Source of the DNA: Escherichia virus TH57
Reading direction: 5' to 3' (one strand)
DNA length: 64,000 nucleotides
Sequence record: MT446422.1
In this document: positions 13,010 through 13,694 of the stretch, piece by piece
Position numbering within the stretch: position 1 is the first letter of the stretch
Layout: each line of letters opens with the position of its first letter
The notes under the pieces: model-generated
Database searches by the model: none
What the model saw: only the letters and a program-made list of their open reading frames with translations
What the model was told of the DNA's origin: nothing
Program-made: the position numbers and the translations under genes

Positions 13010-13239
13010 TGTCTGAACAAACTATTGAACAAAAACTGCAGTCTGAAATCGTAGTTCTTAAATCCCGTATTCTGGACACCCAGGATGTTGCAGCTCAAGC
13101 TCAACAGGAATCACGTATTTTGCAGGATGCTCTGGGTAAAATCGCTGCTCGCTTAGGCATCACCGGTGACCAGATTCAGATTGAAGACCTGATTGCCGCG
13201 GTTCCTGATTTGACTGTTGAAAGTGCTGACGAAGAATAA
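13009..13239 (+). CDS. 57A: tail fiber assembly chaperone gp57A
   Basis: 76 aa coiled-coil protein directly after gene 1, same size and position as T4 gp57A. Confidence 0.8.
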
Positions 13240-13694
13240 TGACATTAAATGAAGTCTCTGAAGGACTTTATGTTGCAGCCAAATTTTCAGAATTAACTCT
13301 TGATGCGCTGGAAAATCTCCAGCGCTCTCTTAAGGTACCTAATCCCGTTCCTCGTGAAAAATTCCATTCCACTATTTGTTATTCCAGAGTAAATATTCCA
13401 TATGTTGTTGCCTCTGGTAGTTTCGAAGTAGCCAACTCTGGTCACCTGGAAGTATGGAAAACTGATGATGGGAGTACCCTGGTTCTTATACTGAATTCAG
13501 ATTATCTTAGTTGCAGACATATGTATGCACGAGCCATTGGCGCAACACATGATTTCCCGGACTATACTCCTCACATAACATTATCTTATAATGTTGGTCC
13601 TTTGACGTATAAAGGAGAAGTCCAGATTCCGGTTGTTTTGGACCGTGAATATAAAGAACCGCTAAAATTAAATTGGTCGGCGGATTTAAAGTAG
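13239..13694 (+). CDS. 57B: gp57B / Acb1-like 2H phosphoesterase (anti-CBASS cyclic-nucleotide phosphodiesterase homolog)
   Basis: 151 aa after 57A; two H-x-T motifs (FHSTI, PHITL) typical of 2H phosphoesterases; T4 57B is Acb1. Confidence 0.7.

Follow-up and report, generated by a model that had tools for sequence, protein, structure and literature searches.

An ATG-initiated open reading frame (ORF) at positions 13239..13694 on the + strand of the 64,000-nucleotide stretch of Escherichia virus TH57 DNA analyzed here (MT446422.1; hereafter the window) almost certainly encodes Acb1, the anti-CBASS phosphodiesterase of phages, which was originally recognized as T4 gene 57B. The ORF listing of the window gives 151 amino acids plus a stop codon, with ends that match exactly those of the original prediction, which had proposed an Acb1-type enzyme from the gene position and two H-x-T motifs. 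Judged from its sequence, the protein is Acb1 by every feature tested, namely the family profile, the catalytic tetrad, the ligand-pocket residues, the C-terminal lid, the fold by homology, and synteny. From the closeness of this homology we strongly infer that this copy would be enzymatically active and would support evasion of CBASS.

By DNA similarity, the window is assigned to Gaprivervirus (VR7/SP18 type); across 1.8 kb, its identity is 96-98% with Escherichia phages 212, VR20, CJ20, and VR7 as well as with Shigella phage SP18. Escherichia phage EAWsc9 is likewise classified as Straboviridae; Tevenvirinae; Gaprivervirus. The 57B orthologs of Gaprivervirus phages CJ20, EAWsc9, VR20, VR7, 212, and SP18 showed 97-99% protein identity, with one or two residue differences that were conservative; the EAWsc9 ortholog was 99% identical, carrying V and D where the window protein has I84 and N86. 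Across phages more broadly, tblastn recovered 57B homologs in 1,478 records, ten of them at 99% identity or above, and with a best match of 99.3%, the exact protein sequence encoded in the window may be absent from the phage collection.

A Pfam scan at E-values up to 1 returned a single family for the protein, Anti-CBASS protein Acb1 (PF23474), scoring 200 bits where the curated cutoff is 27 bits (E-value 1.9e-59) and with residues 8-148 of the protein placed on profile positions 1-143 of 144. The best match among all PDB chains was Acb1 of Erwinia phage FBB1 (7T26; E-value 4.9e-62, residues 9-147), at 69% identity. Entry 7T26 is the apo form of FBB1 Acb1, and 7T27 is the same protein with 3'3'-cGAMP. 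Pairwise alignment with T4 Acb1 had been named in the original prediction as its check, and BLASTP against T4 57B (NP_049750.1) gave 124 identical residues out of 151 (82%) with 0 gaps (E-value 2e-98). Taken together, the profile score, the PDB match, and the identity to T4 bear out the assignment of this ORF to the Acb1-type anti-CBASS phosphodiesterases. A compact 2H fold with a C-terminal lid was found by sequence alone, from the identity to 7T26 and the presence of the lid segment. A single-sequence AlphaFold2 model of the ORF was unusable (mean pLDDT 39.4, pTM 0.32), and it is the identity to the 7T26 crystal structure, rather than any model made here, that settles the predicted 2H-phosphoesterase fold.

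Hobbs et al. (2022, PMC9117128) isolated the T4 57B product (NP_049750.1) from T4 lysate and gave it the name Acb1. In that protein, H44, T46, H113, and T115 form the HxT/HxT catalytic tetrad, Y12, W74, F107, and W147 are the nucleobase-stacking aromatics, E141 touches the adenine N6, and residues 145-152 make up the C-terminal lid (PMC9117128). T4 57B is annotated at 152 amino acids and starts MM, and window numbering is T4 numbering minus 1; apart from this one extra annotated N-terminal methionine, the two proteins are equal in length. All nine of these catalytic and ligand-contact residues recur unchanged in the window protein. The FHSTI and PHITL motifs that had first drawn attention to the ORF were both present on reading the DNA, and the catalytic histidines are positionally conserved, with H43 and H112 aligning to T4 H44 and H113.

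At least two HxT motifs arose in 2.8% of composition-preserving shuffles of the 151-amino-acid protein. The motif count alone is weak evidence, and the weight comes from motif position: the two motifs exceed chance because they align without gaps to T4 H44-x-T46 and H113-x-T115 and are invariant down to 39% identity. The alignment comprised the window protein, T4, FBB1, and six tblastn homologs (from Proteus PM2, an Acinetobacter phage, RB49, and Vibrio, Aeromonas, and Cronobacter phages), the last six being 39-61% identical to the window protein. The tetrad H43/T45/H112/T114, together with Y11, was invariant throughout. Coordinates of these residues and of the genes discussed below are collected in Table 1.

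Table 1. Coordinates of acb1, its functional residues, and associated genes in the window.
Feature	Coordinates	Strand	Basis
Gene 57A, tail-fiber assembly chaperone	13009..13239	+	Pfam GP57, E-value 3.6e-29
acb1 (57B ortholog), predicted 2H-phosphoesterase degrading cyclic oligonucleotides	13239..13694	+	ORF, Pfam, PDB, T4 alignment, dN/dS
Y11 (T4 Y12), nucleobase stacking	13269..13271	+	Invariant in alignment; role from PMC9117128
Catalytic motif 1, FHSTI, residues 42-46; H43, T45 (T4 H44, T46)	13362..13376	+	Sequence, alignment; H and T invariant in 9 homologs
W73 (T4 W74), nucleobase stacking	13455..13457	+	W/F in 8 of 9 aligned homologs; role from PMC9117128
F106 (T4 F107), nucleobase stacking	13554..13556	+	F/Y in all aligned homologs; role from PMC9117128
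Catalytic motif 2, PHITL, residues 111-115; H112, T114 (T4 H113, T115)	13569..13583	+	Sequence, alignment; P, H, and T invariant in 9 homologs
E140 (T4 E141), adenine N6 contact, explaining the requirement for at least one adenosine in the substrate	13656..13658	+	PMC9117128
C-terminal lid, residues 144-151, LNWSADLK (T4 145-152, LDWADDLK), including W146 (T4 W147)	13668..13691	+	5 of 8 residues identical to T4
Five small ORFs downstream of acb1	13759-14091, 14100-14372, 14381-14680, 14736-15014, 15069-15302	+	
vs.4 (Acb2) ortholog, 92 amino acids	29222..29500	+	65% identical to T4 Vs.4 (NP_049728.1); PF24729 Acb2_Tad1_hairpin, E-value 1.2e-15

The 27 substitutions relative to T4 Acb1 are concentrated in the first 8 residues, at surface positions, and at three positions in the lid. 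N86 in the window protein is D87 in T4, and P107, which adjoins the stacking phenylalanine, is D108 in T4; a proline also follows the stacking aromatic in FBB1 Acb1 (DFPDY in the window protein, DYPDY in FBB1). The HxT/HxT tetrad is common to FBB1 Acb1 and the window protein, but FBB1 Acb1 has F at the W73 position, with the loop that follows longer by one residue, and Y at the F106 position.

T4 Acb1 prevents activation of Cap5, Cap4, and CapV in vitro, and a T4 Δacb1 lysate lacks 3'3'-cGAMP cleavage; the catalytically dead control in that study is H44A/H113A (PMC9117128). The Δacb1 phage plates >300-fold worse on active CBASS, and acb1 is dispensable in hosts without CBASS (PMC9117128). A further nine Acb1 homologs have been assayed, and 9 of 9 cleaved both 3'3'-cGAMP and cAAA; the main text of that study names no Gaprivervirus protein (VR7, SP18, VR20) among them (PMC9117128).

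By extension from the work on T4 and FBB1, from which the proposed fold, substrate range, chemistry, and role in vivo are taken, the window protein would be small, would need no metal, and would adopt the 2H-phosphoesterase fold. It would capture 3'-5'-linked cyclic di- and trinucleotides with at least one adenosine (3'3'-cGAMP and cUA as well as cAAA) in a U-shaped pocket, where Y11, W73, F106, and W146 would stack the bases, E140 would read the adenine N6, and the C-terminal lid would shut over the bound ligand. With the ligand strained, the adenosine 2'-OH would attack the adjacent 3'-5' phosphodiester, under acid-base catalysis by H43/T45 and H112/T114. A 2',3'-cyclic phosphate would be the intermediate in this metal-free hydrolysis, and the product, linear and ending in a 3'-phosphate, would be unable to activate CBASS effectors; removal of the second messenger would let the phage escape CBASS abortive infection.

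Paired HxT motifs are common to all 2H phosphoesterases, LigT included, and the 2H fold assigned through homology to 7T26 is a further likeness to these enzymes. The motifs could accordingly be read as those of a 2'-5' RNA ligase or LigT-type RNA repair enzyme, whose substrates would be RNA ends instead of immune signals, and the PHROG match (phrog_755) is indeed described as "RNA ligase," a name used in many RefSeq records. We consider this highly improbable. No Pfam match to the LigT or 2'-5' RNA ligase family was found at E-values up to 1, and NCBIfam returned no match for the Acb1 or Acb2 ORFs at E-values up to 10, a result informative solely against a LigT assignment. Among the profile matches, only PHROG 755 carries the "RNA ligase" name, and PHROG 755 is the Acb1 family itself; the T4 protein bearing this label is the very one that biochemistry has shown to be a cyclic-oligonucleotide phosphodiesterase. 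Acb1 is also unlike LigT in having a cyclic-oligonucleotide pocket with stacking aromatics and a C-terminal lid (PMC9117128), and the window protein retains the full set of ligand-specific residues (Y, W, F, W, and E). Neither RNA ligation nor RNA-end cyclic-phosphodiesterase activity is reported for 57B proteins in the literature examined, and "RNA ligase" appears to be an outdated label transferred from superfamily similarity.

If the protein is taken as a true Acb1, its substrate range or main target might still be unlike that of T4 Acb1, being tuned for example to the cAAA of type III CRISPR or to other CBASS signals. Of the 27 residues out of 151 that differ from T4, several (N86, P107, N145, S147, and A148) are neighbors of the pocket or part of the lid, and Hobbs et al. 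suggest that cleavage of cAAA might also permit evasion of type III CRISPR (PMC9117128). Such a shift is nevertheless very unlikely: every known ligand-contact or catalytic residue is identical to T4, the window protein, at 82%, resembles T4 Acb1 far more than FBB1 Acb1 does, and specificity seems robust across the family, given the cleavage of both 3'3'-cGAMP and cAAA by all of the additional homologs. To a decayed or catalytically dead remnant, kept only through its operon position with 57A, we attach next to no credence. The dispensability of T4 acb1 in the absence of CBASS in the host would be compatible with decay, but the ORF here is intact and full length, its tetrad and ligand contacts are intact, and the gene is kept in the 1,478 phage records noted above. 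Selection argues in the same direction. Compared with T6 57B, whose protein is that of T4 57B apart from the extra methionine, DNA identity was 73.5%, 83 of the 120 differences fell at third codon positions, and the Nei-Gojobori dN/dS was 0.066, with dS near saturation. The acb1 gene of the window is a maintained coding gene under purifying selection and not a remnant.

The surroundings of the gene agree with its identification as acb1. The original prediction had placed the ORF at the T4 57B position, and this was upheld by the three ORFs upstream, which encode a gp3-like tail protein, the dNMP kinase of gene 1 (Pfam DNMK, 7e-77), and gp57A (Table 1). The gene order 3-1-57A-57B-internal-protein genes is the same as that annotated in T4 and T6. 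The TAA stop codon of 57A and the ATG of acb1 overlap by one base (TAATG), whereas in T4 the annotated overlap of 57A and 57B is 4 bases; because stop and start share a base, translational coupling of 57A and acb1 is suggested. The sole feature common to the five small ORFs downstream of acb1 was an N-terminus of the form M-(K/Q)-T-(Y/F)-x-E-F, also found in T4 IPI, which we take to resemble the capsid-targeting sequence of T4 internal proteins. A Pfam scan gave no match for any of the five, and their labels in relatives are inconsistent ("internal head protein," "profilin," and "homing endonuclease"). These ORFs may encode injected anti-defense proteins like IPI. In T4, acb1 adjoins ipI, an anti-restriction gene, within an anti-defense cluster (PMC9117128).

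Two non-coding elements near acb1 were also observed. A hairpin at 13705-13734 (+), AGTGTAGG ... CCTACACT, with an 8-bp outer and a 3-bp inner stem, lies beyond the stop codon of acb1, in the 64 nt that separate this gene from the first ip-like ORF. Folding of a 71-nt segment around it gave a minimum free energy of -16.2 kcal/mol and a z-score of -2.4. A canonical intrinsic terminator was ruled out, as no T-run follows, and the hairpin could serve in RNA processing or stability. Upstream, a copy of the T4 late-promoter consensus, TATAAATA, lies within gene 1 at 12791-12798 (+), ~210 bp before 57A. This site was dropped as a clue to the timing of acb1 expression: the window holds 5 such motifs versus 5.7 expected, which is chance level, and the position is not conserved in T4 or T6, the T4 copy lying elsewhere in gene 1. 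A scan of 10500-15500 for sigma-70 promoter and terminator consensus sequences found nothing specific to acb1.

Beyond acb1, an ortholog of T4 vs.4, the gene for Acb2, was found in the place expected from synteny, upstream of both regB and a vs.3-like ORF (Table 1); the corresponding gene of EAWsc9 is called merely "hypothetical protein." From these assignments, the phage is predicted to carry both a degrader (Acb1) and a sponge (Acb2) of cyclic oligonucleotides, the two known T4 anti-CBASS genes, as T4 does. In work on Panoptes, triggering by T4 needed acb2 and not acb1, T4 Δacb1 was restricted like the wild type, and overexpressed acb1 lowered colony formation (PMC12657218). There is a slim chance that the Gaprivervirus Acb1 has a substrate range shifted via N86, P107, N145, S147, and A148, or that it is differently visible to sensors of cyclic-nucleotide loss such as Panoptes. 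If so, Acb1 and Acb2 together would constitute an undescribed division of labor.

Three further loci in the window were recorded. A 157-amino-acid macro-domain protein (Pfam Macro, E-value 1.4e-08) is encoded at 31232..31705 (+), downstream of vs and at the T4 tk.4 position. It is conceivable that this protein counters ADP-ribose-based defense signaling, because macro domains act on ADP-ribose derivatives. A 319-amino-acid ORF at 23065..24024 (+) matched DUF7277 (E-value 2.7e-27) and DUF7275 (E-value 2.7e-76). Its ortholog in EAWsc9 is labeled "nucleotidyltransferase" and the next gene there "phytanoyl-CoA dioxygenase"; in the window, the next ORF (24084-24770) had no Pfam match. The window contains only two tRNA genes, at 16486..16641 (+), compared with eight in the corresponding region of T4. 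One is tRNA-Arg(TCT), and the other has a CAT anticodon and is called Met by ARAGORN versus tRNA-Ile2 in the EAWsc9 annotation.

The identification of Acb1 in this phage is correct yet already known, because the 99%-identical gene of EAWsc9 has already been deposited as "anti-CBASS protein Acb1" and the family is a characterized, curated one. Most deposited T4-like 57B genes, that of the T4 RefSeq record included, nonetheless carry the name "RNA ligase" or "hypothetical protein" (for example, NC_000866 T4p137, NC_014595, and NC_028894). For acb1, these RefSeq and GenBank labels are out of date; they represent annotation lag and no biological difference. With Acb1 present in ~1,500 deposited phage genomes, the finding has little importance beyond correct annotation. 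For the phage itself, homology to T4 leads us to expect resistance to CBASS signaling that uses adenosine-containing 3'-5' cyclic di- and trinucleotides, more so given Acb2, and this expected resistance bears on host-range prediction and on the choice of therapeutic phages.
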